Virus record (IMG/VR): IMGVR_UViG_3300005470_000003
Coordinates: 1 to 54,194 of that record
Reading direction: 5' to 3' (one strand)
DNA from: a virus
Lineage: Duplodnaviria; Caudoviricetes
Length of the DNA stretch: 54,194 nucleotides
The notes under the pieces are model-generated. The model was given only the letters and a program-made list of their open reading frames with translations, ran no database searches and was not told the origin of the DNA. A program made the translations under genes and the position numbers. Below, piece after piece: positions 14,609 through 49,587 of the stretch (the first letter of the stretch is position 1; every line of letters begins with the position of its first letter).

Positions 14609-15154
14609 ATGAGAATCAATGCTAGATCGGTAATTAAAATCTGTGAAGAGTTGAATTTAAATAATAAAAATTCTAAAAGTTGTGGTATTCTGCCATTATA
14701 TGAAGACAATTTGTTTGTTTATCATCATACTTCTTATCCTGCTGCTTTAAACATTTGTTTGATTGATAAATTACTTGTCGGTAAGACTGGTTTTATTTCA
14801 TTTACTACTAATAAAAATCTTCATTTACAGGGGACTGTAGGATTTAGTGGACATGGGGTTTATTTTCAGGTTTTTCGGAAAAAGTTGGAAAATGATTATA
14901 AATTAGAATCATATAAATATCATTCGTTGGATATTAAGGTCAATGATGAATCTGAAGTTCGGATTGAAACTAATAAAATTAATAAGTTTTTATCATATGT
15001 AAAAAGTATAAATTTAATCAAAACTTATTATCCGTCTCCAACAGATGTTGACTCAAGATTATTGTATCGATTCATGAAAATAGAAGAACCTACTTTTGAT
15101 GAGTATATTAAATTTTTACAAAAGTGTATAACTAAACCAATAAACATTGTGTGA
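14609..15154 (+). CDS. Hypothetical protein with variant leader (MRINARSVIKICEE)
   Basis: 181 aa with GGAG RBS. Confidence 0.6.
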   Translation: MRINARSVIKICEELNLNNKNSKSCGILPLYEDNLFVYHHTSYPAALNICLIDKLLVGKTGFISFTTNKNLHLQGTVGFSGHGVYFQVFRKKLENDYKLESYKYHSLDIKVNDESEVRIETNKINKFLSYVKSINLIKTYYPSPTDVDSRLLYRFMKIEEPTFDEYIKFLQKCITKPINIV

Positions 15155-15348
15155 TTTATAACATAATTATAAAAATCTTTAGATAAGTTATGAGAAATTG
15201 ACAAGAAAACCTAGTGGGCTCGCCATGAGGATGAATTGGCAAAATAATTTAAAAAATACTTATATAGAAGTAATGTCTATGAACTTATGAAATCAAATAA
15301 ATTTGATTTTTTGAAATATAAATACAAAATAAATAGTGGAGTTTAATT

Positions 15349-15780
15349 GTGTCTAGAGCAAATGGATTGATGGGTGTTTTGGAGAAGATGCTCGATAAGG
15401 TTTATTATATTAAGGGAAAGGAGAAACATATATGGGCAGATCCTATTTCTTCTGAATTTCTTGATGCAGCTAGTGAAGGAACATTTAAAGCAATAAGGTT
15501 TGTTGCCAACAGTAAAGATAAATCACTTCATATATGGCATTATCTTGGATTCCATGAGACTATATGGAATATACTTACAGGTAAAAAACTTGATTATGAT
15601 GATAAATCTTTACTAAATGGAGTAATGCTTAAAGAGGGTGGTAAATGGGTAGTTACTGCTGTATCAGAATTGTCATGGTATAGGAGTAACATAGACGAAT
15701 TGATAAAATCTAATAAATTTAATTTTTTGAAAGACAAATACAAGATAGAGTTCGATTTTGATCAAATCAAGGTAAGTTAA
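15349..15780 (+). CDS. Leader-bearing protein, paralog of the C-terminal part of 30379..31053
   Basis: MSRANGLMGVLEK. IRFVANSKDKSLHIW matches IRFTAYNKTKTVYAW. Confidence 0.7.
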   Translation: MSRANGLMGVLEKMLDKVYYIKGKEKHIWADPISSEFLDAASEGTFKAIRFVANSKDKSLHIWHYLGFHETIWNILTGKKLDYDDKSLLNGVMLKEGGKWVVTAVSELSWYRSNIDELIKSNKFNFLKDKYKIEFDFDQIKVS

Positions 15781-15850
15781 CATTTAGCCACGCATTGAAG
15801 CCTCTATGTACAAGGAAGACCCAAAAGAAATCCTTCCAGATATTATTTGA

Positions 15851-17699: not shown

Positions 17700-18545
17700 A
17701 TGTCTAGATCTACAGATATAATTAATTCAATTTTGGAAGTTTCTGACATCTCGGAAGATGAAAAGACTTTATTGAGATTAGGTATAAAGAAATTTAAAAA
17801 GAATGATGATGGTTCTTTTGATGTAAATGGTATTGTCGATATATCAAATAAGGGACTTACTGAAATTCCGGTTAAGTTTAGAAATATTAAACATGGGTTC
17901 ATTTGTAATAAAAATAAGCTTACTTCCCTTAAAAATTCACCGGTAAAGGTAGGTGGTTATTTTATATGTAGTAGCAATAAATTGACTTCACTTTCTGGTG
18001 GACCCGAATCAGTTAAAGGTTATTTTGATTGTGATAATAATGAACTTAAATCTTTAGATGGTTGCCCAAAATTTGTTGGAGATGATTTTAATTGTAACCA
18101 TAATAAGTTAACTTCTCTTTCAGGTTCACCGAATAAAATTAATGGTGGATTTTATTGCAATGGTAATAAACTAAAATCATTGGAAGGTTGTCCATCTGAT
18201 ATAGCAGAGAATTTTTTTTGCAGGAATAATGATTTGATCTCTTTGAAAGGATCACCCAAGAAAATTGGTGATTCTTTTGATTGTAGTAATAACAAACTAA
18301 AATCATTGGAAGGTGGTCCGACTAATATAGGTAAAAATTATAAATGTTCTGATAATGAATTAACTTCCTTGAAGGGGGCACCAGAATCCATTAATGGCTC
18401 TTTTTCTTGTGACGGTAATAAATTAACTTCTTTGAAAGGCGCACCCAATAGTGTTAAGGATTATTTTAATTGTAGTTTTAATCCTGGGAAGTTTACACAT
18501 GAGGATGTTGAAGAATTTGTAAGAACTAAGGATGCAGTAACATAA
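17700..18545 (+). CDS. Leader-bearing leucine-rich-repeat protein
   Basis: About nine 22-aa repeats FxCxxNxLxSLxGxPxx[VI]xG after MSRSTDIINSILE. Confidence 0.85.
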   Translation: MSRSTDIINSILEVSDISEDEKTLLRLGIKKFKKNDDGSFDVNGIVDISNKGLTEIPVKFRNIKHGFICNKNKLTSLKNSPVKVGGYFICSSNKLTSLSGGPESVKGYFDCDNNELKSLDGCPKFVGDDFNCNHNKLTSLSGSPNKINGGFYCNGNKLKSLEGCPSDIAENFFCRNNDLISLKGSPKKIGDSFDCSNNKLKSLEGGPTNIGKNYKCSDNELTSLKGAPESINGSFSCDGNKLTSLKGAPNSVKDYFNCSFNPGKFTHEDVEEFVRTKDAVT

Positions 18546-18768: not shown

Positions 18769-19251
18769 ATGAGTGAAGCTACTGATATTTTAAATAAATT
18801 GGATGAAAAGACTGTAGTGACTTTACAGAACTTGGTTAACGGGGCTGAATTAGTTCAACCAGGAATTAAATCCAAATCACAAAATGTCAAGGTAGATCTA
18901 AAAAGTCAAAATGAGTGGAAGGGTACTAAAAGTATTATATTTGTTGGTGAAGGGGAGAAGGATTATAAACCAAAGGTAAGATTTTATGGTGTTTCAGGAA
19001 AGCCAAATACAAAGAGAACTTCAGTCAGGGTTGATTGTAATTGTTCTTCTTATTACTTTTATTTCTCAATGGCCAATTTTAAGGCCGGGGCACATGAAGG
19101 TCCTAAAGATAAAGTTTATGTCCCTGTTCCAGATGATCAAAGAAAAAGAAAACCTGGTCCGCCAAAGAATCCTGATTCTATACCTGGTTTGTGCAAACAT
19201 TTGTATAGATTTGTCAATAATTTGATTGATTCGGGTTACGTTGACGATTGA
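18769..19251 (+). CDS. Leader-bearing SWIM-like zinc-finger protein
   Basis: VDCNC...NP...GLCKHL, with N-terminus MSEATDILNKLDE. Confidence 0.75.
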   Translation: MSEATDILNKLDEKTVVTLQNLVNGAELVQPGIKSKSQNVKVDLKSQNEWKGTKSIIFVGEGEKDYKPKVRFYGVSGKPNTKRTSVRVDCNCSSYYFYFSMANFKAGAHEGPKDKVYVPVPDDQRKRKPGPPKNPDSIPGLCKHLYRFVNNLIDSGYVDD

Positions 19252-19264: not shown

Positions 19265-19492
19265 ATGAATGCAAAAAAGATAATAGACGAATTGAGCGAG
19301 TCTTGGGTTGGCAATGTATTAATCCCAACTTTACAGGATATAGCCGATTCCGGTGGTAATGTCTTAACTAGGGCTAAAGCAATGGATGCATTAGATGCTT
19401 ACAATGACAAAACATCAAAAAGTGTATATAAGTGGCTTGATTCTATAGATGATAAAGATTATTACAAATTTTATCACATGTGGCTAAAGTAA
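19265..19492 (+). CDS. Small leader-bearing protein
   Basis: MNAKKIIDELSES. Confidence 0.65.
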   Translation: MNAKKIIDELSESWVGNVLIPTLQDIADSGGNVLTRAKAMDALDAYNDKTSKSVYKWLDSIDDKDYYKFYHMWLK

Positions 19493-19524: not shown

Positions 19525-20520
19525 GTGGTTTATTTAGTCTCATTCCCTAGAAGTGGTAGAAATTGGTTGTGTCTTTTACTGGATGTTTACAATGGTGGAC
19601 CTGTTTTCAATAACCGTTTAAATAATCCTGAAAATCCAGATGTATTAATGGATTTCAAAGGAAGATATGATCACGACCATAAAGCAAATAAAAATATTCC
19701 TGGTAGAATTTTGTATTTATATAGAAATCCAGTTGATGTAATATTTTCCATGTTAAATTATATGAATGTTTGGGTTAAACAAGATAAACTATTGACTAAT
19801 ACTGAACAACGTGTAGTAGCTTGGTCAAATAGATGGAAAAATCATATGAATAAATGGTATTATAATACACCTGATTCTTGTTCAGATAAATGCATTATTT
19901 CTTATGAAGATTTAGTTACCGATCCAACTGTTTGTAATTTTATTTGGCCGATTGATAAACCAGATTTAGAAGCCATTTCTAAAGGTGTATCAGAAAATTT
20001 AAAAATATCATTAGAGCAAGCAATTAATTATGTCTCATTGCGTTTACCCGATAGATGGGAACAGTTGAATGATAAGAATTTTAAAGATAAATCCGAAAAT
20101 AAAGCTATATTTTTATCTGTTGGTGATCATTATTCAGCATATATTAGGAAAAAAAATATAGATTTAATTGTAAATGATTCTTTTGTTAAAAAATATGCAT
20201 TAGATATAGTCAAAAATGTTGATGATTCAATGTTATTATCAATATTGAATTTGATTGGGGATTTTAATAATAGATTTGGTGCATCTATAAAAAGAAATCA
20301 CCTTGATAATTTTATTCGGAATGCATTTAATAATAAATTATATTCTGTTCTTGAACCATTTGTTAATTCTAAAGATTATTGGGTTCTTTCTGATGATGCT
20401 AAAAAATTGATAAAAAATTTTGGTGATTATATTGATATTGATTTACCTAAGAAATTTACTACATCATTTTGGATAGATATTTTCACCAAGGAAATGGAAA
20501 ATGATTTCATGTTTGATTAA
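19525..20520 (+). CDS. Sulfotransferase domain fused to an unrelated C-terminal region
   Basis: 5'PSB SFPRSGRNWL, 3'PB YRNPVDVIFS, and YEDL. Recognisable similarity ends near residue 135. Confidence 0.75.
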   Translation: MVYLVSFPRSGRNWLCLLLDVYNGGPVFNNRLNNPENPDVLMDFKGRYDHDHKANKNIPGRILYLYRNPVDVIFSMLNYMNVWVKQDKLLTNTEQRVVAWSNRWKNHMNKWYYNTPDSCSDKCIISYEDLVTDPTVCNFIWPIDKPDLEAISKGVSENLKISLEQAINYVSLRLPDRWEQLNDKNFKDKSENKAIFLSVGDHYSAYIRKKNIDLIVNDSFVKKYALDIVKNVDDSMLLSILNLIGDFNNRFGASIKRNHLDNFIRNAFNNKLYSVLEPFVNSKDYWVLSDDAKKLIKNFGDYIDIDLPKKFTTSFWIDIFTKEMENDFMFD

Positions 20521-21909: not shown

Positions 21910-22338
21910 ATGATGCAAACTGCAAAACAAATAATAGATTTGTTTGAATCTTTTAAGGTTCCTGAGTACCATAAGATTCTATACAGGAATTCTAATTTTA
22001 AAATTGGTTCTGATGAGATCCTGATGCTTCATACATCTCCCAAAAAGAATTTGAAGTCTATAGTAAAGTCAGGTTTACGAGCAGGTACAGGTAAACCAGG
22101 TTCCGTTGGTTCCGCAGGTTCTACGGATCTATGGGCATGGAGTAATCCTCAGGAAGTAGTCAATGCTATAAAGTCGGGTAAGGAAATTGTAGTTATTTTT
22201 GCGGCTAAAGACGCAAGTGTTGTACGTCTTCCCAATACAAAAGCTTCCTTCATTAAAAAGGGAAGCATACCATCCGATAAGATTAGTTTTATTACAATTC
22301 CCAGAATAGGTGTGCAATGCGAACCGCACAAGAAATAA
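21910..22338 (+). CDS. Leader-bearing ADP-ribosyltransferase-fold (KptA/Tpt1-like) protein
   Basis: MQTAKQIIDLFES; LHTS...LKSIVKSGL; IPSDKI. Confidence 0.6.
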   Translation: MMQTAKQIIDLFESFKVPEYHKILYRNSNFKIGSDEILMLHTSPKKNLKSIVKSGLRAGTGKPGSVGSAGSTDLWAWSNPQEVVNAIKSGKEIVVIFAAKDASVVRLPNTKASFIKKGSIPSDKISFITIPRIGVQCEPHKK

Positions 22339-22922
22339 TAAATTTGTTTGAAGTTAAAATAGAACCATGTAGTATTAGTCCCAGGGGTTATTATACTGGT
22401 AAACCTTTGGAAAAAGGTGGAACTAGTATTCAAGGTAAAGCAGCCCATGGTGTCAGGTGGTTGTTTGGTAAAGGGTATATCGAATCGACCGATAAAGTGT
22501 TAGATTATGGGGCTGGTAAATATGGACGAAATGGCTTGTATCTAAGGGAACAAGGTTGTCAAGTATTTTGTTATGATCCTTTTAATGGTAAGTCAAACGC
22601 GGATGGTTGGAATGGGGTTTCCACAACCCCCCCAAAAACTCGGTTCGATATAGCCTTTACTTCCTTTGTACTTAATGTAGTCCCTTTGAAGGTAGAAAAA
22701 GATATTATTAGGGAAGTAAGTTCATTATCTAAGAAGTCATTTCATATTACAAGGAACACAGACATTTTTGATTCTGTTAAGAAAGCCTTGTTAAGGAGGG
22801 ATAAATTAGTAGGGGAATTTTTCACAAAGAATTTTGCTACTGGTTTTGAAAAGGACGCCTATGAGAATAACACATTAGATGATGAAACCATCATGGAGTT
22901 TTGTCTTTTAATGGTATTATGA
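22317..22922 (+). CDS. Leader-bearing class I SAM-dependent methyltransferase
   Basis: MRTAQEIINLFE; VLDYGAGKYG, YDPF, FVLNVV. Confidence 0.8.
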   Translation: MRTAQEIINLFEVKIEPCSISPRGYYTGKPLEKGGTSIQGKAAHGVRWLFGKGYIESTDKVLDYGAGKYGRNGLYLREQGCQVFCYDPFNGKSNADGWNGVSTTPPKTRFDIAFTSFVLNVVPLKVEKDIIREVSSLSKKSFHITRNTDIFDSVKKALLRRDKLVGEFFTKNFATGFEKDAYENNTLDDETIMEFCLLMVL

Positions 22923-23055: not shown

Positions 23056-23321
23056 ATGATAACAGCTAATGATGTTATAGAATCCATTTCAACTTCCAAA
23101 TACAAGTATGATAAGTAAACCGTAGCAAATATGGCTTGGTTATCTTTCCTAGTGTATCCTTATCATGGGGAATAGATCCAAAAGATATTTTAATTGATGT
23201 TAATTATGTAGCAAACAAGAACAATTACCGGTCTGGTGAGTTAAAGTTTTATAATGAATATGAGATTGTAACAAGACCTATGAAGGGAAAAGCTAAGATT
23301 GTGATGGTGTATGAACCATGA
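23056..23321 (+). pseudogene. Broken leader-bearing gene with ART-like C-terminal fragment
   Basis: Stub MITANDVIES... stops at 23118. Downstream fragment DILID...EYEIV resembles the ExE end of 47428. Confidence 0.45.
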
Positions 23322-23795: not shown

Positions 23796-25277
23796 ATGAC
23801 AAACGCAAATGAAATAATTGATATATTTGAAAAAGTTTATGGTAAACTGGCTACCGTGTATACCAGGCGTAGACGTGACTTAACCCTCAAGAAAATAGAA
23901 CAGGAAGGATTTCGTGCTGGATCTGGTGCCATGTATGGTAAAGCTATTTATACCTGTTACGATTTCAGATCTCAACAACGTGAAGGAATGATAGAATCTT
24001 ATGGTCCATATATTGTTAAGTCTAAAGTAAATTTGGATAAGTTTTTTATTTGTGATCCGTGGGCTGCTAAAAAGGTGTATGGGAAGAAATATTATACATT
24101 GAGTGATCAAGCTGAGTATATATTGGGAAAGGATCTTTCAGAGGATGATTTTTTAGAACTTGTTGATTTGGAAAGCATGATAAAATCTGAAAAGGGTGGA
24201 TACACTTCTGAGGTGGCATTAAAACTTTCTCATTCTAAATTTAAAAAGATATGTAGGGGTTTAGTTTTTACTGGTAGACATGATGGTAGAGTGGCGGTTG
24301 TATATAACCAAGAAGCCATCACACCTATATCATATACTTACGCTCCTGAAGAATCATTTAAGTTAAAAGAAAATGAAATGGAATGGATTAGTGTAAAGAA
24401 TAAAGCATTAATAGCTAAAGCACTATCCATTCAGTTGGATGACATACAAAAGGCTACAAGTACTGAATTTCAACCTACTGAAGAGGTAGTCCAAAGTTTT
24501 ATAAAACGTAAAACTATGCTTCAAGACGTTGCTGAAGAAGTGATTATTTTTCTGGAAGGGTCAGATGATTATGTTATTACAGTAGGATATGGTGATTTGG
24601 TTTATAAAATTGTAAGTGAATTCATAGAAGAATATATCCGTACTCATTCTCGTACTGATAAGTTGAAAGAAGTCAAATGGACTAAAAAGACAGGTTGGCT
24701 TGAATTTGATTTATCAGCTTGGTATCCTAATTTGAAATCTATTAGGGGTAGACTTGATAATTACCATCCTGATATTTCAGCTGTATTTGATAACGAAAAG
24801 AAACTTGAGAATTTAGTAAACGGACCATGGCAGAATGTTTTGTTTCACGAATTCGAATATGGTTCTGGAAGTTATCATTCCGGTGCTTTCGATATCAGAC
24901 CTAAGTTTGGAACTAAAGGAAAAAAGTGGATAACGGATGTTCAGAAAGTTACGATTAGGCCATCCATTATTAAGTTGAGACCGTTGGTGAATAAATTTTT
25001 AAAGTCTTATAAGTATAATCCAAATCATTTTAAATTTGACCTACAGGCACGGTATCCTGAGGATGAATTTACTAAAATCGTAGTGAATGGTCTGAAAGAT
25101 TACTTTATAAAGTCTAATCAGGATGAAATTAAGGATTGTTGGAAGCTAAGTCCTTTTGCTATTAACGGTTTGGCTAGAATTCTAAATTTCTTATCATATG
25201 AATATGAAAAGGAGTTATCACCAGAAGTAATGGTGGATGTCATTAAGCAGACTTGGGACAATGCCCATCCTAAATAA
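23796..25277 (+). CDS. Leader-bearing protein with N-terminal PARP-like ADP-ribosyltransferase fold
   Basis: MTNANEIIDIFEK; EGFRAGSGAMYGKAIY; YGPYIVKSKV; GLVFTG...AVVYN. Confidence 0.65.
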   Translation: MTNANEIIDIFEKVYGKLATVYTRRRRDLTLKKIEQEGFRAGSGAMYGKAIYTCYDFRSQQREGMIESYGPYIVKSKVNLDKFFICDPWAAKKVYGKKYYTLSDQAEYILGKDLSEDDFLELVDLESMIKSEKGGYTSEVALKLSHSKFKKICRGLVFTGRHDGRVAVVYNQEAITPISYTYAPEESFKLKENEMEWISVKNKALIAKALSIQLDDIQKATSTEFQPTEEVVQSFIKRKTMLQDVAEEVIIFLEGSDDYVITVGYGDLVYKIVSEFIEEYIRTHSRTDKLKEVKWTKKTGWLEFDLSAWYPNLKSIRGRLDNYHPDISAVFDNEKKLENLVNGPWQNVLFHEFEYGSGSYHSGAFDIRPKFGTKGKKWITDVQKVTIRPSIIKLRPLVNKFLKSYKYNPNHFKFDLQARYPEDEFTKIVVNGLKDYFIKSNQDEIKDCWKLSPFAINGLARILNFLSYEYEKELSPEVMVDVIKQTWDNAHPK

Positions 25278-25305: not shown

Positions 25306-25458
25306 ATGAAAGCAAAACAAATAGTTAAGGATTTATGGGAAGCATCTTATCCAGATAACATTGGATTTGAGGAAATGGTGAAATTTTATACTGCGGCTTC
25401 CAATAAACAGATAAAAGAAATAGAGATTGATGATTTCATAAGGAATTATAATGGATGA
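25306..25458 (+). CDS. Small or truncated leader-bearing protein
   Basis: Own translation MKAKQIVKDLWEASYPDNIGFEEMVKFY..., with GGTGA RBS. Confidence 0.55.
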   Translation: MKAKQIVKDLWEASYPDNIGFEEMVKFYTAASNKQIKEIEIDDFIRNYNG

Positions 25459-25631: not shown

Positions 25632-25769
25632 ATGATGAATGCAAGAAAAATAATAAATATTATTGATGAGGTCGATGATGTAATTAAAAAAGAAATCGTT
25701 AGCTCTTTTTCAGTTGATAAAGATATAGATAAACATGATGATAAAGATAATAAAAATGGTGACAATTGA
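25632..25769 (+). CDS. Small leader-bearing acidic peptide
   Basis: MMNARKIINIIDEV..., with GAGGTG RBS. Confidence 0.5.
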   Translation: MMNARKIINIIDEVDDVIKKEIVSSFSVDKDIDKHDDKDNKNGDN

Positions 25770-29305: not shown

Positions 29306-29614
29306 ATGCAAGGAATTTATGATAGTTACATTGAATTTTGTCCTGAAGCCGGTGGAACGTGTTTGGGTCCTATATGTGCTGCTTTTAAATCAACAATTCA
29401 TTTGGGTTTAGATGGATCTATATTGATTAGACAGATGGGTTATGAATTACAAACACCAACACCAGTCATGTTGTCTATTGATATTGCTATATGTAATAAA
29501 TATAATAAATTGATAGGAGAGGATTCAGCTAATCTGTATTATAATTTCTTGCAGGATATGGGTATAATTAAAAACATAAGGTTTTTATCGATTGGAGAAG
29601 AAGAAGATGAGTAG
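29306..29614 (+). CDS. Hypothetical protein
   Basis: 102 aa with CPxxxxxCxxxxC motif. Confidence 0.55.
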   Translation: MQGIYDSYIEFCPEAGGTCLGPICAAFKSTIHLGLDGSILIRQMGYELQTPTPVMLSIDIAICNKYNKLIGEDSANLYYNFLQDMGIIKNIRFLSIGEEEDE

Positions 29615-30329
29615 AGCGATTGATTTGATTAATTTATTGAATGAAGTTGGAACTGGTGGAGATGGACAGGAAGCCGGTAAACTTGAAATTGCTAAAATTT
29701 CCATGCAACAAGCTATCGATTTTATGGATAATAAGAAGTTTGATTGGAAAGAATTAATACCTGACTTTGAAAAAAATTTTAAAATAGCACAAGATAGAGC
29801 TAAAAAGGGTTGGACTAAACGTGAGGAAATGCCGGTTATAGAAGACGAAGATGTCCGTAAATTACAAGCTCGTTTAAGAAAGGGTAATTTGGATATTAAT
29901 AAACCATTTGCTGATGATACAAATCCAAAGAATCCTTTTCCACAAGGTTTGAGTGGTTTCGAGGCTGCTGAGTTTCTTGAACGTGGATTGAAGGATGGCA
30001 GTATTAAGGATGATCAAATAGATGTTGACATTAGTACAGCAATTATAAAAGATTTGACACCAATACAAAAACAAATTTACTTTGATATAGCAATTGGAAA
30101 TACCATTAAGTTTGGCTTGAAATCAAGTATTGATTTCGTATCAAATAAATCATTTTTCATTCTTAGTAAAGATAAGAGAATCATTGATGGGCACCACAGA
30201 TTTTTAACCGGTATGTTGATTAATCCGGATATGAAAATTAATGCGCTTGTTATTGATTTACCAATTAAAAAATTGTTGCCATTAACTATTTCATATTCAG
30301 ATGCCTTAGGACATAAACGAAACAAATAA
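29607..30329 (+). CDS. Leader-bearing protein with ParB/Srx-like domain
   Basis: MSRAIDLINLLNE; LxPxQ and IIDGHHRF motifs. Confidence 0.75.
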   Translation: MSRAIDLINLLNEVGTGGDGQEAGKLEIAKISMQQAIDFMDNKKFDWKELIPDFEKNFKIAQDRAKKGWTKREEMPVIEDEDVRKLQARLRKGNLDINKPFADDTNPKNPFPQGLSGFEAAEFLERGLKDGSIKDDQIDVDISTAIIKDLTPIQKQIYFDIAIGNTIKFGLKSSIDFVSNKSFFILSKDKRIIDGHHRFLTGMLINPDMKINALVIDLPIKKLLPLTISYSDALGHKRNK

Positions 30330-31053: not shown

Positions 31054-31116
31054 TAATTTGGAATAAGAAAAATGACAAGAGCGAATGAAATCTTGAATAA
31101 AATCGATTTTAATCAC

Positions 31117-31365
31117 GTCGATAACCCCATACCCAAGGGTAGGAATTTTTAATAATTCTAGTTATCGACCAGATTAAGAAAGTTATTTTTTTTTAACTTT
31201 CTACGTGTATTTAGTTATGATACCTACAAATGCGTGCCAGTTTGTAGCCCTATCGTTAAGCATCATGAAAACATGGTTGGGGACATGGTGAAGGTGTTTA
31301 GCATGACAAGCTTTATACACATTATCGAGGCAAACATTACAGCCGAAAGGCTAGAAGGAGTTTTA
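31117..31365 (+). ncRNA. omegaRNA scaffold of IscB element 1
   Basis: GTCGATAAC...GTTATCGAC stem, CAGATTAAG, CTACGT, CTACAAA-TGCGTGCCAG-TTTGTAG, CATTATCGAGG, GCCGAAAGGC hairpin directly upstream of iscB. Confidence 0.75.
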
Positions 31366-32918: not shown

Positions 32919-33200
32919 ATGAATAGAGCTCAGAAAATAATTGAGTCATTAATTATATCAGAAGGTCTAAAACCAGTTGATAAGAAAGTTGTAGACGATT
33001 TCTATAGTGAAAAAGAAAATCACAAAGGTAAACTTCTTGATACAGATGGCAAGACGCTTGAAAAGATGGGTTTGGGTAGACAACAAATTGCCAAGTGGGA
33101 AAATGATAAGATAGTCATTACAGCTAAACAGGATGTTAAATCTACTGAAAGTATTCTTACATATATGAGAAAATTGATACCTAAAAACAATTTTGCTTAG
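32919..33200 (+). CDS. Leader-bearing hypothetical protein
   Basis: MNRAQKIIESLIISE, with GAGGAG RBS. Confidence 0.7.
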   Translation: MNRAQKIIESLIISEGLKPVDKKVVDDFYSEKENHKGKLLDTDGKTLEKMGLGRQQIAKWENDKIVITAKQDVKSTESILTYMRKLIPKNNFA

Positions 33201-33954: not shown

Positions 33955-34162
33955 TTGGATTATTTGAAGATTTTGTTGATAAACTATTTCTTAAATTTGA
34001 GGAGTTAATTAATACTTCTTTTCATATGGGTCACAATCACAAGTCTGACTGAGGTTAAACGTCTCTTCAATTACTAGATTCACTAAAAAAATCTAAAAGA
34101 GATTTAGTAATGAAAGCAAATGAAATCATAGAAAGTATTGAATCTATATTGGAGGAATTAAA

Positions 34163-34426
34163 ATGTCCAAAGCTAAAAATATTATTAACAAAATGAATGA
34201 ACAATATGATGAGGATTTTTTAGAGACTCTTAAAGGGGACTTTGAAGATCTATTAGATCAAATTGATGAATTAGATAGATTGAGATTAAATATCGAAGTT
34301 GGTATAGATGGGTTGAATTTAACAAATGGTAAAATTGGTAAAACCTTTAGTAAAGCCAATGACATGTTTGATAAAACTGTAAAAGAATATAAAAATCTCC
34401 AAAAAATGGTAAATAACATTAAATAA
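34163..34426 (+). CDS. Leader-bearing coiled-coil protein
   Basis: MSKAKNIINKMNE, with GGAGG RBS. Confidence 0.7.
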   Translation: MSKAKNIINKMNEQYDEDFLETLKGDFEDLLDQIDELDRLRLNIEVGIDGLNLTNGKIGKTFSKANDMFDKTVKEYKNLQKMVNNIK

Positions 34427-34572: not shown

Positions 34573-35154
34573 ATGAAAGCTAGTAATATAATTGAACTGT
34601 TAGATAATCCGATGTATGAGATGGCCGATACAAATTGGGTTATTGAACCCGGTAATACCCCAAAGAAAATTAAAAAAGCTTATAAACTTTTTAAACTTAA
34701 AAATGGTGGTTTATATCCGTTGTTTATTGGTAAAAATAAAGAGACACCAATGAATATTTGGTTAATCGCAGATTTTATTCCGACTAAGGGATATGCCGAA
34801 AGACCTGGGTGGCATTCTGGTATTTTACCGATAGCCCCTCATTTACGTAGAAAAAGTACTGGAAAGATTAATTCAAACAGAGTCTGGGCTGAAGTTTCAG
34901 TTTCTGCTGATAAGGATTGGAGTAAAGATCCAGAAATGACAAAGAACGGTATTACTGGTAAAGTACCGAAGGATGGTTACTATAAGTTCAAGACTAATAA
35001 AATGCAGGGCGGTGCTTGGATAATTTCTGGAGCTTTAAAGGTTAATAAAGTTCTTAGTGATTTTGAAGTTTCTAAAATTTTGTCAAAGGCTGGCTACCCA
35101 AAATCAGAAATAGAAAATGAAATGCATGATCCTGAATTTAACGGAAGAATATAA
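34573..35154 (+). CDS. Leader-bearing conserved phage protein
   Basis: MKASNIIELLD; YKLF..LYPLFI, RPGWH, RVWAEV, GYYKFKTN, WIISG. Confidence 0.75.
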   Translation: MKASNIIELLDNPMYEMADTNWVIEPGNTPKKIKKAYKLFKLKNGGLYPLFIGKNKETPMNIWLIADFIPTKGYAERPGWHSGILPIAPHLRRKSTGKINSNRVWAEVSVSADKDWSKDPEMTKNGITGKVPKDGYYKFKTNKMQGGAWIISGALKVNKVLSDFEVSKILSKAGYPKSEIENEMHDPEFNGRI

Positions 35155-35195: not shown

Positions 35196-35387
35196 ATGAA
35201 AGCAAAAAAATTTTTGGACAGCGTTAATGAGGGTTACAAGGTTGATGATATAAAAGATTTTTTCAGAAAGGTTAAAGATCCATCCCTTTATAGTTTTTTT
35301 GCTGAATTTCAAAAATCTGTAGAAAGTGAATGCGGTGAAATGATTCCAACTGAAATATTAGTTAAATCTTTGAAAAAAATTATGTAA
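35196..35387 (+). CDS. Small leader-bearing protein
   Basis: MKAKKFLDSVNE. Confidence 0.6.
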   Translation: MKAKKFLDSVNEGYKVDDIKDFFRKVKDPSLYSFFAEFQKSVESECGEMIPTEILVKSLKKIM

Positions 35388-36737: not shown

Positions 36738-37055
36738 ATGTCTAAAGCTAATGAACTTATACACAAATTATCAGATAAAAATGAAGCTAATTCATCTAAT
36801 GATGAGGCATGGAAGATAATGGCCTCTTTGGAACTTAAAGTTATTGAAATTACTGATGGGGACTGGAAAAAAGCTGATAATATTTATAACGATTGGAAAA
36901 AGGTATATAACATTATTTTTGAGCAAATTTCAAAACTTACAAACAAGTTTAAAGATAAAGATAAAGCAAGACAAATCTTAGATGTACTTATTGATAAGGG
37001 ACATAAAGCTTTAAAGAGAGCTTCATTGGCCATTGTTAATGATAAAAATTTATAA
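36738..37055 (+). CDS. Leader-bearing hypothetical protein
   Basis: MSKANELIHKLSDKNE. Confidence 0.65.
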   Translation: MSKANELIHKLSDKNEANSSNDEAWKIMASLELKVIEITDGDWKKADNIYNDWKKVYNIIFEQISKLTNKFKDKDKARQILDVLIDKGHKALKRASLAIVNDKNL

Positions 37056-38781: not shown

Positions 38782-39372
38782 ATGACTAGAGCTAGACAAA
38801 TTTTAAAGGAATTAAATGAGTCCAGTCTTTCAAGAGTTTGGAATCATGTAACTAAACATGATTCAGGTACTATCTCTGCTTTTCGATATGCTAAAGATTG
38901 TGGTGATGGTGAAGTATTTTCTAAGAAAGAAAATAAAGATCGTAATGCTGTCTTAAAAGCAAAGTTATTAAATGTTGGATATGGGGTAACTCCAGTAAAA
39001 GGTATTTATATTGAAAATTACAAATCTAATAATGAAATTGAGGTTTCCGAAAATAGTTTTATTGTAGTAGATTTAAAAGATACAGGAAATCTTAAAGAAG
39101 CTCTTATTAAATTCGGAAATGAATTTGAACAGGATAGTATTACTTATTCAAAAGCTAATGGGGATTATTTCCTAATAGGGACTAATGATTGTCCTAAGTC
39201 TTATCCGGGATTTAAAAAGGAAGTGAAGTTGGGAGGTCCCATGTTTGGAAAGAAGGGGATTTTTTATTCTAAAGTTAATGGGAGACCTTTTGTTTTTGAA
39301 AGTATTAATTCTAATGTAATATCATTAGTTGATTTATCTATTTCTGAGATTAGATCAATTAAGCAGTTATAG
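38782..39372 (+). CDS. Leader-bearing conserved phage protein
   Basis: MTRARQILKELNE then SSLSR...ISAFR...G.YIE...E.SF...FEQDSI. Confidence 0.75.
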   Translation: MTRARQILKELNESSLSRVWNHVTKHDSGTISAFRYAKDCGDGEVFSKKENKDRNAVLKAKLLNVGYGVTPVKGIYIENYKSNNEIEVSENSFIVVDLKDTGNLKEALIKFGNEFEQDSITYSKANGDYFLIGTNDCPKSYPGFKKEVKLGGPMFGKKGIFYSKVNGRPFVFESINSNVISLVDLSISEIRSIKQL

Positions 39373-39465: not shown

Positions 39466-39801
39466 GTGTACGAATATAAGGCAAGAGTGGTTAGAATTGT
39501 TGATGCTGACACATTTGATGTTTTAGTTGATCTTGGATTTGATTTAAGTTTTAAGATTAGAATTAGAATAAATGATTATGATGCTCCCGAAATTTGGCGT
39601 CCAAGAAATCAATCTGAAGCAGAGCATGGAGATAAAGCTACAGCACAGGCAAATAAACTTGTTTGGCAAAAAGATATAACTATTAGGACTTATAAATTAG
39701 GGATTTATGGTAGATACACTGCCGATGTGATACTACCAGATGGAAGAAGTTATTCTACTTTAATGAAGGAGCTTGGATTTGAAAAATCTGAGAATTATTA
39801 A
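39466..39801 (+). CDS. Thermonuclease (staphylococcal nuclease-like)
   Basis: VRIVDADT..V.VDLGF, RIR...DAPE, YGRY. Confidence 0.88.
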   Translation: MYEYKARVVRIVDADTFDVLVDLGFDLSFKIRIRINDYDAPEIWRPRNQSEAEHGDKATAQANKLVWQKDITIRTYKLGIYGRYTADVILPDGRSYSTLMKELGFEKSENY

Positions 39802-40067
39802 TGAAAGCTATTGATATATTACAGATGTTCGAAAAGAAATTTGAAATTGGTGAAGGAACTGTTGTAATTATTAATCCAAAAATTTCTGGATCTGATGGTG
39901 GTGTTGGTATAGTTAAAGATCCTAGAGATGGGAAATTTATGATTGTGAAAAATTTTAAAACTATGAAAACTCATTCTTTTGCTGGTTCTGATATTAGGCA
40001 TTTAGATGATCCAAGGGCAGATGAGTGGATCACACCGGAAATAGAGAAGATTTTGAACAAGATGTAA
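39801..40067 (+). CDS. Small leader-bearing beta-rich protein
   Basis: MKAIDILQMFEK. Confidence 0.65.
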   Translation: MKAIDILQMFEKKFEIGEGTVVIINPKISGSDGGVGIVKDPRDGKFMIVKNFKTMKTHSFAGSDIRHLDDPRADEWITPEIEKILNKM

Positions 40068-41033: not shown

Positions 41034-41627
41034 ATGACTAAGGCTACTGATATTATTGATTTATATGTGGGGCTTGAATTAGATGAAGCCTTTTATCGAG
41101 GTTTACAAATACTTGAATCTTATGATTTAACAGATCAATGTGAGACTGCAAATCAAGAGAAGACAGATGAAGCGTTTGGGGTGGTAGCAATACTCGGGCT
41201 AGTTATGGCTATGCCTAGTTTTGTTAAGTTGGTTGCCAAGGCGTTTGGTTGGATTTATAAAAAGATTGTTAAGTTATTTACGAAAAAAGATATAGATTCA
41301 CCTGAATTCATAGATAAGATTATTATTTTTGCAGAAAAATGGCATGATAAATACATTATTGTCCTTGAAAAGATTTTGAAAATAGCTGGTGTGTTTAAGG
41401 CAGCTAAATTAGAAGATCATGAGAAACAAAAGATGGCTGCTGAGGTCTTATTTTATATAATTGTGTTCGGTATGGCTGTCTATAGTGGTGTTGGAGCCAC
41501 TAAAGCAATAATTACTGCCATTCAGAATAGTAGTGCAGCACACAGTAAGATCGCGGTCATAGAAAGTGTATTAACTGGATTGAAATCCAAGGAGGTAAAG
41601 ACATTTATACAAAACATAAGTGCTTAA
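41034..41627 (+). CDS. Leader-bearing protein with two hydrophobic segments
   Basis: MTKATDIIDL; FGVVAILGLVMAMP and VLFYIIVFGMAV. Confidence 0.7.
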   Translation: MTKATDIIDLYVGLELDEAFYRGLQILESYDLTDQCETANQEKTDEAFGVVAILGLVMAMPSFVKLVAKAFGWIYKKIVKLFTKKDIDSPEFIDKIIIFAEKWHDKYIIVLEKILKIAGVFKAAKLEDHEKQKMAAEVLFYIIVFGMAVYSGVGATKAIITAIQNSSAAHSKIAVIESVLTGLKSKEVKTFIQNISA

Positions 41628-41815: not shown

Positions 41816-42703
41816 ATGTTGATAAAAGCAAATGACATAATTTCACTATTCGAATCAAAAGAATTGATGTATCACGGAACATCATCCAAGTTTTTAGATA
41901 GTATCATAAAGAACGGTCTTTTATTTAAAGAGGATGGAAGGGTTTGGGGTACTAAACAGGTTTCAACTCATTTGAATGATCTTGAATCTTATCATGGAAC
42001 TTATTTTACACTGAATTTTATGACTGCATATAGTGCATCTGGTCAAGCACATCGTAAATTTGGTGGAAATCGTTTAATTATAATTGCCAATATTGAGACC
42101 AGGACCCCGCAAGTAGTTGCAGATGAAGATGATGTCAAGAATAAAATTACCATTTTTTCAAAAGATTATAAAATTTACCCTGAAAGCGATACACTTAAAG
42201 TTGACATATTGAAATATGATAGTCTTGATTATGAAAGAAGTTGGGAAGAATTTAAATCAAGTGTAACTTATGGTAGATTGGGTTTTCCAAAGAAGTTGGA
42301 TTTATTATTTCCATTATATAAAGACTTATTGCTTGCTAAATTGTTATGGGAATTGTCATTTCATGATGTTGAAAAAGTTACTGGAATAAGTTACGATTTA
42401 AAACAGCTGCATAAAAAATATGATTTTAAAAATGCAAGGAGTAACTTTAGGAGTTTGTTTGATAAATTTTTGAAAAAGTTAAATTTTTTAGCAAGCCCGC
42501 CTCCTACTGGTCGTTTCATGCATTCAGTGAGGATGACAGATCCTGTTGGTTTCAAAGGGAAAAACAGAATTGTATATATTGTTGAAAATACTGACGATAA
42601 AAAATACATATGGACTGAAAGATATAATAAAAGTGGTGTTGCAAAGGAAATGTTTTTGAAAAATATAAAAACAAGTTTGTCTAAAAACGCTACAATTATC
42701 TAA
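41816..42703 (+). CDS. Leader-bearing ADP-ribosyltransferase-fold protein
   Basis: KANDIISLFES; MYHGTS..L.SI.KNGL; GTYFT; ADED. Confidence 0.72.
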   Translation: MLIKANDIISLFESKELMYHGTSSKFLDSIIKNGLLFKEDGRVWGTKQVSTHLNDLESYHGTYFTLNFMTAYSASGQAHRKFGGNRLIIIANIETRTPQVVADEDDVKNKITIFSKDYKIYPESDTLKVDILKYDSLDYERSWEEFKSSVTYGRLGFPKKLDLLFPLYKDLLLAKLLWELSFHDVEKVTGISYDLKQLHKKYDFKNARSNFRSLFDKFLKKLNFLASPPPTGRFMHSVRMTDPVGFKGKNRIVYIVENTDDKKYIWTERYNKSGVAKEMFLKNIKTSLSKNATII

Positions 42704-42727: not shown

Positions 42728-43405
42728 ATGACTATTGCAAGAGATATTTTAAGAATCATAGAAGATAGATGGGGTACCAATTTTTCAGGTGACGACACTG
42801 GAAATTGGGAATCAAAATTAATATTATCAAACGATTGGACAATGACTTGTGGACTTTCATTAAAAAATGATAGGAAAAATTATTCAGTTGAAGGTGCAAC
42901 AGAGGATCATCCTGGTTTTAGAAAAGCTCTTGATGAAATTGTTAAAAAATATCCATATATAAAAGATTATCTTATATCTTTTGATGGGCCATATATTAAA
43001 ATATCTGATGTATTAAAGCGTAAGAAATTTTCTTGGAAAGATATTACACTGTATCATGGAACGGCCTCAGCCTTTTTGGATTCTATAAAAAAGAATGGGT
43101 TGAGTCCAAGGTCTGTTACTAATCAAAATGCCGGGTATGGTTCATTTGTTGGGGCTAAAAGTGGTAATAAAGATGCCATATATCTCACAACACAAATTGG
43201 AATGGCTAAATTTGCTGGTTTAGAAGTTTCAAGTAAAACAAATTCAGATAGGATAATATTATCGGTAAATGGAAAAGATCTCAATCCAAAGCTTTTGATT
43301 CCAGATGAAGATAGTAGAAAACAAACACCAGAAGATAGTTTATTTAAAATTGGATCGGTTGGGTATCTAGGGATTATTCCGTTTAGTCAGTTGTCAAGGT
43401 CTTAA
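42728..43405 (+). CDS. Leader-bearing ADP-ribosyltransferase-fold (KptA/Tpt1-like) protein
   Basis: MTIARDILRIIED; LYHGT..L.SI.KNGL.P; IYLT; PDED; YLGIIP. The last codons come from IscB element 2. Confidence 0.75.
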   Translation: MTIARDILRIIEDRWGTNFSGDDTGNWESKLILSNDWTMTCGLSLKNDRKNYSVEGATEDHPGFRKALDEIVKKYPYIKDYLISFDGPYIKISDVLKRKKFSWKDITLYHGTASAFLDSIKKNGLSPRSVTNQNAGYGSFVGAKSGNKDAIYLTTQIGMAKFAGLEVSSKTNSDRIILSVNGKDLNPKLLIPDEDSRKQTPEDSLFKIGSVGYLGIIPFSQLSRS

Positions 43406-43620: not shown

Positions 43621-43622
43621 TA

Positions 43623-47089: not shown

Positions 47090-47422
47090 ATGGGAAAAGC
47101 TACGAATATATTAGAGGGTTATGGTGATAATTATAGTGTTAGTCTTTCTGCTACTGGTAGTTGGCAAATCAGTTTAAAAATACCTACAAAGACTACTGAT
47201 ATGATTCATTTTAGGGATATTGTTGACGGTATTTCAAAAGATAAACAGGATGATATGCTTGATGAGTTAGATGATAGTATGAAGAAATTAGAAAAGAGAG
47301 CCGATAAAGATATAAAAGAATTGTCTGATGCAGTTGAAATAATGCTCGAATCTGTAGCCATTAAATATTCCGACGTTGTTAAAGATCTGGTTTCAGAATA
47401 TAGAAAGAAGTACGGGGCATAG
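47090..47422 (+). CDS. Leader-bearing protein resembling the C-terminal part of 46523
   Basis: MGKATNILE; KELSDAV...KKYG versus EELAKAV...KKYNG. Confidence 0.7.
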   Translation: MGKATNILEGYGDNYSVSLSATGSWQISLKIPTKTTDMIHFRDIVDGISKDKQDDMLDELDDSMKKLEKRADKDIKELSDAVEIMLESVAIKYSDVVKDLVSEYRKKYGA

Positions 47423-47427
47423 CAAAT

Positions 47428-48570
47428 ATGATTAAACTAACGGAAAGTAATGATTATAAAGTTGTTAAAGTGAAGCCAATTACTTCTGCTGAAAAGAAAG
47501 CCTTGCAAAAATTACAAGGTATGTTTGAAGTAGTATATGAATTTTTTTCAGAAAAGAATAAAACTAAAGCAGGGTATTTTCTGTTTAAACAAAATATAGC
47601 CCAATACTTAAAATTGCCATTTGCTAAACCATTGGTTTCAATTATATCAAATATAGATAAAGAACTTGAAAGTATTCAAGGAGCCAGAAAAGATTTAGAT
47701 AAAACAAATAAACAATTTAATGCCAAGGTGGATAAGTTTATAGGTTTAGTTAAGAAGCAGGACATCAATGGTTTTATAAAGATGTCAAAGGAAATGGCAT
47801 CTATTAATAAGTCCATTCAAAAGGCCCTAACTAGTACAGAAGGAACAGTTAAGGAGATTAGGAATCCTTTCAAGAAAGAAAGTAATTGGTTATTTCAAGC
47901 TACCGGTATTTTGAAAAACTTTGATTTAGTTGATATGAAGAAAATCATTGATATTGACCTTTCAAAGTTCAAGTTTAGTTATTTGAACTTTCCATCAAAG
48001 CATCTCAATGATTTCGAATACCTTGTTATATTTGCTCAGAAGTTAAGGGATAGTGATGAGGAAGTAGGGATAGATCAAGAAGATTTTCATAGATTTACAG
48101 ATTTTTTATATCAAGCTAAGGGAGATTGGCAAGAGTTAAGAAATATGGTTGATGATTATCTTCATAGAAACAATAAAAACCTAATACCAAAAATTATTGC
48201 GAAATTAGATGAATTTGATGAATTAAAATTAGCTAATGATAATCAGAAGAAAAAGCTTAAATACTTATACCGTGGTGTGGGTGGTGAAGGTGAATATCAG
48301 TCTAAAAAAGCTATCGATAAGATTTTAAAAGAAGAAAAGAAACGTAAAATTGTTTCTACATCTAAATTTAAAGATTCTGCTGAAAATTTTGCTATGCATA
48401 AAGGACATTTAATGGGTAGTCGTAACAATGATTGGGGTCTTTTGATAACTTATAAGGTTAATCCAAATTCTATTATTCTTGATACCGAAATTTTTGGTTC
48501 AATATTTGGTGAGTCAGAGGTTTTGATTGATACTTCAAAAGCTAAAGTTGACAATTATGAGGTTGTATGA
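47428..48570 (+). CDS. R-S-E class ADP-ribosyltransferase (Alt/Mod/VIP2-like C-terminal domain)
   Basis: LYRG, VSTS, A.NFA and ESEVLI after a long helical region. Confidence 0.78.
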   Translation: MIKLTESNDYKVVKVKPITSAEKKALQKLQGMFEVVYEFFSEKNKTKAGYFLFKQNIAQYLKLPFAKPLVSIISNIDKELESIQGARKDLDKTNKQFNAKVDKFIGLVKKQDINGFIKMSKEMASINKSIQKALTSTEGTVKEIRNPFKKESNWLFQATGILKNFDLVDMKKIIDIDLSKFKFSYLNFPSKHLNDFEYLVIFAQKLRDSDEEVGIDQEDFHRFTDFLYQAKGDWQELRNMVDDYLHRNNKNLIPKIIAKLDEFDELKLANDNQKKKLKYLYRGVGGEGEYQSKKAIDKILKEEKKRKIVSTSKFKDSAENFAMHKGHLMGSRNNDWGLLITYKVNPNSIILDTEIFGSIFGESEVLIDTSKAKVDNYEVV

Positions 48571-48627
48571 ATCGAGAAATTTTGATGTAATTACAAGAAA
48601 ATTAATTTATCATAAAACGGTAAAGTC

Positions 48628-49587
48628 ATGAAAGCTTTAAAACTTATAAATATAATAAATGAACTTTCGTATCGTGTAGAAAATATACCAAAACTGTTTA
48701 GGGTTGTTCTAACTTTAGAAGATGCTGTAAAAGATTTGAAAAAACAGGAATTGAATGGTGTTACCGGAATTTCAGATACTAAGGAAATTGTGATGTCTTT
48801 CCTTGGTGTGGCAAGAGATACAGTATTAATTATGCCAGCCAAGGAAACTGAAAAAATGAACAAGTTGTCTCGCATAATGTATGATAATCCACATTATCTT
48901 CTGCAAGATAATATGTATGCCTTAATGAGAATTTGGGACCGAACTCCTAGATCGATGGATGGAGTCATATTTAATATTTTTGAGTATGTTGTAGCATATT
49001 GGAAGGAAAGTCATAATCATGAAGAATTAGTTTATCCGGCACAATATTTTGCCTGGTGGCAAGCATTAGCTAATGTTTATTATGAGAAGGCTAAAAAGAT
49101 CAATAACATTGATGATCTCACTAAATGGGCCATAAAAACAACAAAAAATGAATTAGTTAAAGAGTATAGACATTATGCTGAAGAGATTGCTAAACTTTCA
49201 TACAAAGAAATGAGAGATTCTATTTGGAATGGGCTATTAAGAGTAAAGAAGATTTATGGTTCTGAAGGTGAGTGGGTAATAAAAGATAAGATTTTAAAAA
49301 TTCCAAATGGTTCTACTTTGTTGGTTTTGAAGTATCCTGCATCAACTTGGAAATATAGTATAATGGATTTCATGACTAATCTTAGGGCTGGTAAATTAAA
49401 AGAATTTAGCAAAGATTTACCTGATGATGAAATTAATGATGCCTATAGTGATTATATATGGAAACATTCGCCTCAATTAAAGTTGGTTAAAGATAATAAA
49501 TTAGATAAATTATATAAAGTTATTTTCTTGAATGCACAGGAATTTGATGGAATTAAAAAACGATTTTTTTCCAAAAAATACAGTTGA
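48628..49587 (+). CDS. Leader-bearing protein, possibly a divergent ART
   Basis: MKALKLINIINE; LFR, GIS, EGEWV (weak). Confidence 0.6.
   Translation: MKALKLINIINELSYRVENIPKLFRVVLTLEDAVKDLKKQELNGVTGISDTKEIVMSFLGVARDTVLIMPAKETEKMNKLSRIMYDNPHYLLQDNMYALMRIWDRTPRSMDGVIFNIFEYVVAYWKESHNHEELVYPAQYFAWWQALANVYYEKAKKINNIDDLTKWAIKTTKNELVKEYRHYAEEIAKLSYKEMRDSIWNGLLRVKKIYGSEGEWVIKDKILKIPNGSTLLVLKYPASTWKYSIMDFMTNLRAGKLKEFSKDLPDDEINDAYSDYIWKHSPQLKLVKDNKLDKLYKVIFLNAQEFDGIKKRFFSKKYS

Follow-up and report, generated by a model that had tools for sequence, protein, structure and literature searches.

The subject of this analysis is the window, a stretch of 54,194 bases that is the entire record for its genome (IMG/VR record IMGVR_UViG_3300005470_000003), and a short N-terminal leader that was found at the start of 26 of its open reading frames (ORFs). 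This shared N terminus is probably a capsid-targeting propeptide of the T4 type, worded differently from that of T4 and 2-3 residues longer, as judged from sequence comparison and by analogy. The idea had been put forward in an initial annotation of the sequence, and it is supported by the L/I-x-Glu end of the leader, the presence of S77-family protease and Gp23-family capsid genes in relatives, the depletion of the motif [LI]xE from the proteins behind the leader, and published virion data for Yersinia phage YerA41; it also accounts for the position of the leader at ORF starts and for its modular spread.

As shown in Table 1, the leader starts comprise 22 ORFs of 44-493 residues and four short ORFs of 9, 20, 26 and 28 residues, and the latter (9-28 codons) look like remnants. 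The consensus is M-x-[KR]-A-x-[DE]-I-[IL]-x-[LI]-x-E, of 12-13 residues, with the hydrophobic positions 4, 7, 8 and 11 on one helix face and an [L/I]-x-Glu end at residue 12-13, and about a fifth of the genes of the fragment begin with it. All 19 of the ORF starts listed in the initial annotation were found with the coordinates and the reading quoted there, and seven more were added, at 14609, 23056, 25306, 25635, 31072, 34110 and 11399. The description of an amphipathic motif ending in Glu was borne out as to the motif, which is present at all the listed starts, and not fully as to the Glu, which is missing from the register in 6 of the 26 leaders (14609, 32919, 34573, 36738, 41034 and 47090), making these the weaker ones. 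The motif is absent from PurB, the large terminase (TerL), the DHH protein, primase and CysC, as had been stated.

The frequency of the leader was evaluated with a strict core, [AS]-x-[DENKQRST]-[ILFV]-[ILV]-x-x-[ILMFV], beginning at residues 2-6. This core was present in 18 of 113 + strand gene calls, whereas its rate at internal positions (22 matches among 14,482) predicts 0.86, and the shuffled control (residues 2-20, 2000 shuffles) gave a mean of 0.59 and a maximum of 5. By region, it was found in 0/42 gene calls before 14609, in 18/63 within 14609-49587 and in 0/8 after that; the claim that the first 14 kb holds no clear example therefore stands, the sole trace there being the 9-codon remnant at 11399. 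A regular-expression scan of every ATG on both strands gave 19 matches on the + strand and 1 on the - strand. In 25 of the 26 ORFs an in-frame stop lies 0-63 nt ahead of the leader Met, making this the first or near-first available start.

A pattern confined to gene starts might reflect a constraint on the mRNA near the start codon, acting on translation initiation in an AT-rich genome, and well-translated genes indeed often have A-rich codons, AAA and GCA for example, behind the start. The Ala position of the leader is encoded by GCT in 13 cases, by GCA in 10 and by GCG in 2. The pairwise identity of the leaders was found to be 0.63 at codon positions 1 and 2 and 0.35 at position 3, the latter close to the value of 0.34 for the 27 nt upstream. 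Because synonymous codons are used freely and the upstream DNA is not conserved, selection acts on the leader peptide and not on the DNA. These values, and the 42 gene calls in the first 14.6 kb that lack the pattern, leave the mRNA constraint with an almost negligible probability.

The search for relatives was first of all a search for cultured ones, and a nucleotide search with the window and protein searches of a phage collection gave no close cultured relative. Protein searches with two leader proteins returned two weak partial matches, both in uncultured-phage records, and a TerL-based scan of IMG/VR viral contigs gave no relative. Relatives were found among the IMG/VR contigs by means of a degenerate DNA pattern derived from the leader, which matched contigs G001, G002 and G007 at 14, 6 and 8 places on one strand, compared with 0 for the reversed control. 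The pattern searches returned 19 and 10 hits, most of which arose by chance, and G003, G004, G006, G008 and G009 had 1-3 matches each. A scoring matrix trained on the window leaders only was then applied at a threshold of 8 bits: 47 of 168 N-termini in G001 and 11 of 39 in G002 scored at least 8 bits, against 11 of 5190 and 0 of 1149 internal blocks, respectively. In G007, strict leaders are present on 18 of 204 ORFs, clustered in and around the head module. Identity of the window TerL to its counterparts was 43% for G001 and 51% for G007, and four window leader proteins have full-length G001 orthologues with a leader or leader-like start.

These contigs contain head genes of the T4 type. In G001, a Peptidase_S77 protein (the T4 gp21 family) was detected at 40.4 bits (cut-off 27) and a Gp23-family capsid protein at 63.1 bits (cut-off 24.4), and protease and capsid homologues were identified in G002 and G007 by BLAST, with the protease fused to the scaffold. 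The leader genes sit in the head and baseplate modules of G001 and G007, and are also found in extended arrays of small genes. An invariant [I/L]-x-E/A-D near residue 70 is common to the capsid proteins of G001, G002 and YerA41 (here and below, a slash marks the position after the Glu) and fits a T4-like maturation cut; the G007 capsid protein reads S-I-C-E/D-D at that site. An alignment to the solved T4 gp23 for the cleavage site gave no match with a single capsid sequence, and a three-sequence capsid profile gave one weak Gp23 match that left the N terminus uncovered.

The scaffold proteins of the relatives contain 4-6 tandem repeats of a unit of ~23 residues (e.g. YKELG.p.E..EALD), encoded on the reverse strand at 11014-11676 in G001, 13827-15197 in G002 and 22143-23705 in G007, and these repeats might be putative docking sites for the leader. 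The G007 capsid gene (reverse strand, 23805-27034) is split into three ORFs of 86, 202 and 45 residues with a 364-residue ORF between, which suggests an intron or a homing-endonuclease insertion.

In T4, the capsid-targeting sequence (CTS) is carried by the internal proteins (IPs) IPI, IPII and IPIII and by Alt, and it is removed by gp21. According to passages of PMC9026906, the T4 IP propeptides are 10-19 residues long, targeting needs residues 4 and 7 of the CTS whereas processing needs residues 8 and 10, gp21 cuts after L/I-X-E, and Asp in place of the Glu blocks processing. A passage of PMC3012670 describes the T-even internal proteins as diverse defence proteins whose only common feature is the conserved CTS. 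The window leader resembles the CTS in being a short N-terminal propeptide-like segment on unrelated, mostly small basic proteins, in its hydrophobic positions 4 and 7-8 and its L/I-x-Glu end, in the low internal [LI]xE content of the bodies, and in the gp21-family protease and gp23-family capsid protein that are encoded by relatives. The wording is unlike: T4 ipII and ipIII start MKTYQEFIAE/A and ipI starts MKTFKEF...ITE/A, and it was found that the sequence likeness between the two is limited to the pattern of hydrophobic positions and the final Glu. Furthermore, the Glu is at residue 12-13 here and at residue 10 in T4, and T4 has about five cargos, in contrast to 22-26 on 54 kb here and to 47 or more in 98 kb of sequence from a relative.

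Cargo in a prohead together with an [LI]xE-specific protease would be expected to avoid [LI]xE in its bodies. The sample consisted of 83 strict leader proteins of at least 60 residues from four contigs (the window, G001, G002 and G007), with 380 non-leader proteins encoded by these contigs as the comparison. The Glu is at residue 12 or 13 in 59 of the 83 leaders, and of the 65 with Glu in register, 51 have L or I at P3. In the 83 leader bodies, 66 [LI]xE were observed compared to 96.3 expected from within-protein shuffles, an observed/expected ratio (O/E) of 0.69 (bootstrap 95% interval 0.49-0.87), whereas the 380 non-leader proteins had 863 compared to 744 expected (1.16). An O/E below 0.88 was reached by none of 5000 sets of 83 proteins drawn at random from the non-leader proteins, and the four contigs differ from expectation in one direction (19/25.7, 28/42.6, 6/13.6 and 13/14.9). 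Twelve motifs were tested, of which [LI]xE alone had been chosen beforehand, and the control motifs [LI]xD (1.30), E-x-[LI] (1.21), [LI]E (1.18), [LI]xK (1.23) and [AGS]xE (1.12) were not depleted in the leader bodies. The ratio of [LI]xE to [LI]xD was 66:145 in the leader bodies and 863:827 in the other proteins (Fisher p = 5e-8). The T4 proteins IPI, IPII and IPIII, which are basic, have 0 internal [LI]xE compared to 2.7 expected.

The nearest cultured capsid proteins to that of G001 include those of Thermus phage phiLo (41%), YerA41 (36%) and Cobetia phage Carin-5 (36%), and leaders were found in the last two. The leader MS[RK]IS.LN.KFE, with A, S or G as the next residue, is common to seven YerA41 proteins (Table 1), among whose bodies a single pair showed any relatedness (E 0.002). 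According to Table S2 of PMC7354516, which marks 63 of 201 genes as particle-associated, all seven (7/7) are particle-associated, five of them being listed as late and two as middle; the hypergeometric chance of this is about 2e-4 by our own arithmetic. In GenBank, 5 of 6 YerA41 leader proteins are labelled 'structural protein', compared with 35 of 207 other genes (p = 0.001). Two of the YerA41 proteins have orthologues among the leader proteins of G001. YerA41_066, of the RimK-type ATP-grasp family, is 34% identical to a G001 leader protein over 451 residues (E 1e-72), with an alignment that begins just after both leaders, and YerA41_059 (210 residues) is 37% identical to a leader-bearing G001 protein over 107 residues. 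As to an earlier description of the YerA41 leader, the word 'N-terminal' is absent from the main text of PMC7354516; no wider literature search was made on this point. The YerA41 capsid protein also begins ...KKYE/S, and in Carin-5 leaders ending in ...KYE, at 13046 and 21517 (locus L041), adjoin head genes.

The leader of YerA41 and Carin-5 thus has in common with that of the window a head gene family, a 12-residue helix ending in Glu, unrelated small proteins behind it and two cargos that are orthologous between YerA41 and G001. It differs in its wording, with Lys at P3, and in having 7 carriers in YerA41, the virion association of which is published.

A model for the function of the leader would have three steps. 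The leader helix would dock its protein to the scaffolding core of the prohead during head assembly, the gp21-family (S77) prohead protease would then cut after the Glu and free the mature protein inside the head, and the proteins would exit together with the DNA when the phage infects, ready to serve in host takeover and counter-defence. We infer the docking, the cutting and the ejection from T4 and from the virion proteome of YerA41. The same cleavage-rule evidence would also be explained by a propeptide that keeps proteins inactive or times their activation, cut by the prohead protease and involving neither carriage in the head nor injection, and several cargos (SAM-lyase-like, ADP-ribosyltransferase-like) look potentially harmful to the producing cell. 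We regard this as quite improbable: a flexible helix of 12 residues, as in the fold model described below, would be unlikely to inhibit many unrelated folds, the YerA41 counterparts are present in particles, and T4-type proteases work inside the prohead, as stated in a passage of PMC9026906.

The bodies behind the leader were compared with each other by BLAST, and among the 22 window bodies a single pair fell below E 1e-3 (41816 and 42728, E 2.8e-6), with weaker links of this ADP-ribosyltransferase-like subset to 14609, 21913 and 23796. The statement that unrelated bodies stand behind a shared leader is thus mostly correct. If the leader proteins were one expanded paralogous family in which only the N-terminal helix is still recognisable, the distant subset of 41816 and 42728 might be a remainder of it, but the bodies range from 44 to 493 residues and belong to differing families (S-AdoMet lyase, a methyltransferase-like PHROG and, as further cargo families, RimK ATP-grasp in G001 and DUF5661), and two bodies have homologues elsewhere without this leader; a common origin of the whole proteins is therefore very unlikely. 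For one of the bodies, that of 34573, it was found that 24 of 40 homologues begin within 9 residues of a conserved motif, and the window protein has a leader-headed extension of 36 residues. Since most of the homologues lack such an extension, the leader is an add-on.

Most of the window leader bodies were assigned to no family. With the Pfam thresholds relaxed, 30379, 41816 and 42728 showed ADP-ribosyltransferase-type hints, all of them sub-threshold, and these three proteins are accordingly not called enzymes. The initial annotation had spoken of a set of enzymes, which is borne out by one SAM-lyase-like body, one methyltransferase-like body and the sub-threshold ADP-ribosyltransferase-like hints; with so few recognisable bodies, the wording overstates the case. 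The median isoelectric point (pI) of the leader bodies compared to the other proteins was 8.7 versus 6.1 in the window and 9.2 versus 5.3 in G001.

The best-defined cargo is the product of 38782, which we assign on sequence and a fold model to the S-adenosylmethionine (SAM, S-AdoMet) lyase family, with lyase as a predicted activity. Its body matched Pfam PF23780 at 50.3 bits (cut-off 28). The fold model had a predicted local distance difference test (pLDDT) score of 84, and the top 7 Foldseek matches were phage SAM lyases, although weak ones (E 1.5e-3, template-modelling (TM) score 0.38-0.54). In this model, residues 3-13 of the leader form a helix of low confidence, pLDDT being under 50 for residues 8-14, and a confident body follows. 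The 38782 protein also occurs on an 84-kb contig. There are 905 homologues of this protein, and 120 listed ones were examined. In 119 of these 120, a variable extension of 3-45 residues (median 11) precedes the conserved body. The extension ends in Glu in 117 of 117 listed homologues, and in 109 of them P3 is L, I, V or F. Several of the extensions in other phages read like T4 IP leaders, and the window-type core was found, among the listed homologues, in the window's own protein only. In Campylobacter phage CP220 (locus L042, 1426-2984), the adjacent genes gp189, gp188 and gp187 begin with a T4-like leader (MKFKDYIK, MKFIDYLK and MTFKGYLY, respectively). The SAM-lyase-family homologue is gp189, and it shares this other leader with its two neighbour genes.

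Several observations weigh against the capsid-targeting interpretation. The protease, scaffold and capsid genes were not found on the 54-kb window, which is a fragment, and the link to a T4-type protease and capsid runs via relatives with 43-51% TerL identity. For this lineage, the reading of the leader rests on comparison rather than experiment. Among the 83 strict leaders, 18 have no Glu in register. The motif [KR]xE is as low in the leader bodies as [LI]xE (77 compared to 112 expected, 0.69), and no explanation was found for this; it may reflect a second protease preference, the YerA41 leader having Lys at P3, or chance among 12 motifs. The basic pI of the leader bodies was not seen in G002 and G007. 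In the SAM-lyase family, the conserved Glu might be the first residue of the conserved fold and not a cleavage site, and [LI]xE was not clearly depleted within that family alone (O/E 0.91, from sequences that are not independent).

The YerA41 comparison has weaknesses of its own. The GenBank tags were matched to the rows of Table S2 by protein length and gene order, and P3 of the YerA41 leader is Lys and not L or I. Most of the 63 particle-associated YerA41 proteins (of 201) have no leader, so that the tag is not needed for association with particles, and the preparation may hold passengers. The scale is also without precedent, as T4 has about five and YerA41 seven such proteins, whereas here 20-28% of ORFs carry the leader; this share is at once the chief reason for doubt and the chief point of interest. 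Finally, the window contains 17 forward and 8 reverse copies of the T4 late-promoter word TATAAATA, and G001 contains 10 and 12, respectively, with no tie of their placement to the starts of leader genes in either.

The last two points would suit a leader that determines the address or the stability of its proteins and has nothing to do with the capsid, such as a degron for a host AAA+ protease or a peptide that docks to a chaperone or hub, and that would thereby impose one fate on a whole class of phage proteins. Elsewhere, short amphipathic helices at N-termini are known to act as degrons or as docking peptides, the leader is present on a very large share of small ORFs without assigned function, which resemble typical early genes, and the late-promoter signal was not found at the leader genes. 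Such a tag would leave unexplained the terminal Glu with L or I at P3, the [LI]xE depletion beside the [LI]xD enrichment, the clustering of leader genes in the head and baseplate modules of G007 and G001, and the presence in virions of the YerA41 orthologues, and we consider it unlikely. Two specific candidates, a sliding-clamp-binding motif and an AAA+ protease degron, were dropped, since with either of them both the conserved Glu and the [LI]xE depletion go unexplained. The alternatives to a capsid-targeting propeptide thus either fail to account for the Glu, the depletion and the virion data or conflict with what the codons and the homologues show.

Table 1. Leader ORFs and other features of the window, with the leader genes of phage YerA41. 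Leader N-termini are given in brackets; aa, residues.
Feature	Coordinates	Strand	Remarks
Leader remnant, 9 codons (MTKAIDIIV, stop)	11399..11428	+	Just upstream of metallophosphoesterase gene
Leader ORF, 181 aa (MRINARSVIKICEE)	14609..15154	+	Weaker leader; faint ADP-ribosyltransferase-like hint only in body
Leader ORF, 281 aa (MSRSTDIINSILE)	17700..18545	+	Directly after TerL; phrog_21719/7816
Leader ORF, 160 aa (MSEATDILNKLDE)	18769..19251	+	C-terminal part homologous to G001/G007 head-module protein
Leader ORF, 75 aa (MNAKKIIDELSE)	19265..19492	+	
Leader ORF, 141 aa (MQTAKQIIDLFE)	21913..22338	+	
Leader ORF, 201 aa (MRTAQEIINLFE)	22317..22922	+	Methyltransferase-like body, below Pfam cut-off; phrog_14016 match
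Leader remnant, 20 codons (MITANDVIESIS...)	23056..23118	+	
Leader ORF, 493 aa (MTNANEIIDIFE)	23796..25277	+	Longest cargo
Leader ORF, 50 aa (MKAKQIVKDLWE)	25306..25458	+	Homologue in G007
Leader ORF, 44 aa (MNARKIINIIDE)	25635..25769	+	
Leader ORF, 240 aa (MSRAIDLINLLNE)	29607..30329	+	G001 orthologue with leader, 35% identity, full length
Leader ORF, 26 codons (MTRANEILNKID...)	31072..31152	+	Broken 45 nt in by HEARO RNA/IscB-like element
Leader ORF, 93 aa (MNRAQKIIESL)	32919..33200	+	G001 orthologue with leader, 55% identity
Leader ORF, 28 codons (MKANEIIESIE)	34110..34196	+	Overlaps next leader gene in other frame
Leader ORF, 87 aa (MSKAKNIINKMNE)	34163..34426	+	
Leader ORF, 193 aa (MKASNIIELLD)	34573..35154	+	36-residue extension ahead of body
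Leader ORF, 63 aa (MKAKKFLDSVNE)	35196..35387	+	
Leader ORF, 105 aa (MSKANELIHKLSD)	36738..37055	+	Asp in place of the Glu of most leaders
Leader ORF, 196 aa (MTRARQILKELNE/SSLSR)	38782..39372	+	S-AdoMet-lyase family body; PF23780
Leader ORF, 88 aa (MKAIDILQMFE)	39801..40067	+	
Leader ORF, 197 aa (MTKATDIIDLY)	41034..41627	+	Glu not in register; hydrophobic stretch in body
Leader ORF, 295 aa (MLIKANDIISLFE)	41816..42703	+	ADP-ribosyltransferase-like hint below cut-off; G001 orthologue with leader-like start
Leader ORF, 225 aa (MTIARDILRIIE)	42728..43405	+	Distant paralogue of 41816; Tpt1, PARP and Diphtheria_C hints below cut-off
Leader ORF, 110 aa (MGKATNILEGYGD)	47090..47422	+	Weak leader
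Leader ORF, 319 aa (MKALKLINIINE)	48628..49587	+	G001 orthologue starts MKKAVDIIELTE, 35% identity
Metallophosphoesterase gene	11495-12205	+	Metallophos match; just downstream of 11399 remnant
Accessory genes: two Lar-like restriction-alleviation proteins, YidD homologue, adenylosuccinate lyase, sulfotransferase-like protein with APS-kinase, tRNA-Leu(UAA)	162-305, 8414-8785, 4743-4949, 12563-13873, 19525-20520, 49975-50409, 3102-3188		
YerA41 (MW570730) leader genes, tags 205c, 206c, 208c, 209c, 210c, 066, 059	139741-143979, 29211-30632, 23860-24207		Loci L038-L040

The remainder of the window was also characterised. It is AT-rich (G+C 28-37%), and all credible genes are on the + strand. The 611-residue product of 15863-17695 is 35-43% identical to annotated large terminases of 110-207-kb myoviruses and is the TerL referred to above; it had no Pfam or PHROG match. 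Since there are also tail-fibre-like genes at the end of the window, the window is a fragment of a large tailed phage.

Two IscB-like genes (RRXRR and HNH domains; 380 and 396 residues) are present at 31117-32588 and 43386-44813, with 44% identity over 125 residues, and a full-length HEARO RNA stands ahead of each of them (110.9 and 109.9 bits, with a gathering score of 83). The first of these RNAs begins 45 nt into the leader ORF at 31072, and the element appears to be lodged inside this leader gene; the second IscB-like element has a copy with 55% identity in G007. Within the leader region, 26498-28968 encodes a 694-residue protein with four PAS domains followed by a 129-residue response-regulator receiver domain, a sensor pair that is unusual for a phage. 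At 51106-52211, an IS607-type serine recombinase (MerR-like helix-turn-helix and resolvase; phrog_6620 'transposase') overlaps the end of a DNA-methyltransferase-like gene, and no TnpB-like gene was recognised beside it. The leader-free first 14 kb contains repeats of other kinds: the short ORFs at 622-798 and 9109-9231 are 80% identical over 40 residues (MCFQQHNHH... and MCFLQYNHY...), and the same 18 bases stand at 5886-5903 and 6972-6989, ahead of the starts at 5904 and 6990.

Other phages are known to carry or process head proteins in comparable ways. Phage P1 reportedly loads its Dar proteins in a hierarchy and with no common cleavable leader. Its likeness to the present system is that counter-defence proteins are placed in the capsid and delivered with the DNA, as described in a passage of PMC12810830. 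In the giant phages phiKZ, 201phi2-1 and SPN3US, head and ejection proteins have N-terminal propeptides that a gp21-related protease likewise removes by cutting behind a Glu and that are believed to direct proteins into the prohead, whereas most of them exceed 100 residues, share no single sequence and are cut at A/S/G-x-E; in SPN3US, 8 of about 50 head proteins are processed (all from passages of PMC5694885). Our literature searches listed no paper on an expanded CTS set as large as that of the window and its relatives.

A broader claim, which we advance tentatively and as something that could well prove too strong, is that there is a lineage of roughly 200-kb phages with T4-type heads in which a fifth to a quarter of the genes would encode capsid cargo, with 50 or more proteins delivered, and in which this cargo may be read from the sequence by the leader and by the avoidance of [LI]xE with Asp replacing Glu. 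The leader would provide a sequence rule for listing candidate injected proteins of uncultured phages, and the shift from [LI]xE to [LI]xD a second, independent mark for such lists. The YerA41 leader makes the idea testable in a cultured phage with existing proteomics data, and the leader, as a natural packaging tag, might be tried as a means of bringing foreign proteins into phage heads. If the capsid-targeting interpretation is true, the few internal proteins of T4 would be the small end of a much wider strategy, in which some phages deliver dozens of pre-made effectors. Such effectors, here among them a SAM-lyase-like protein and probable ADP-ribosyltransferases, would act before phage gene expression, which would bear on restriction, BREX-type and abortive-infection defences.

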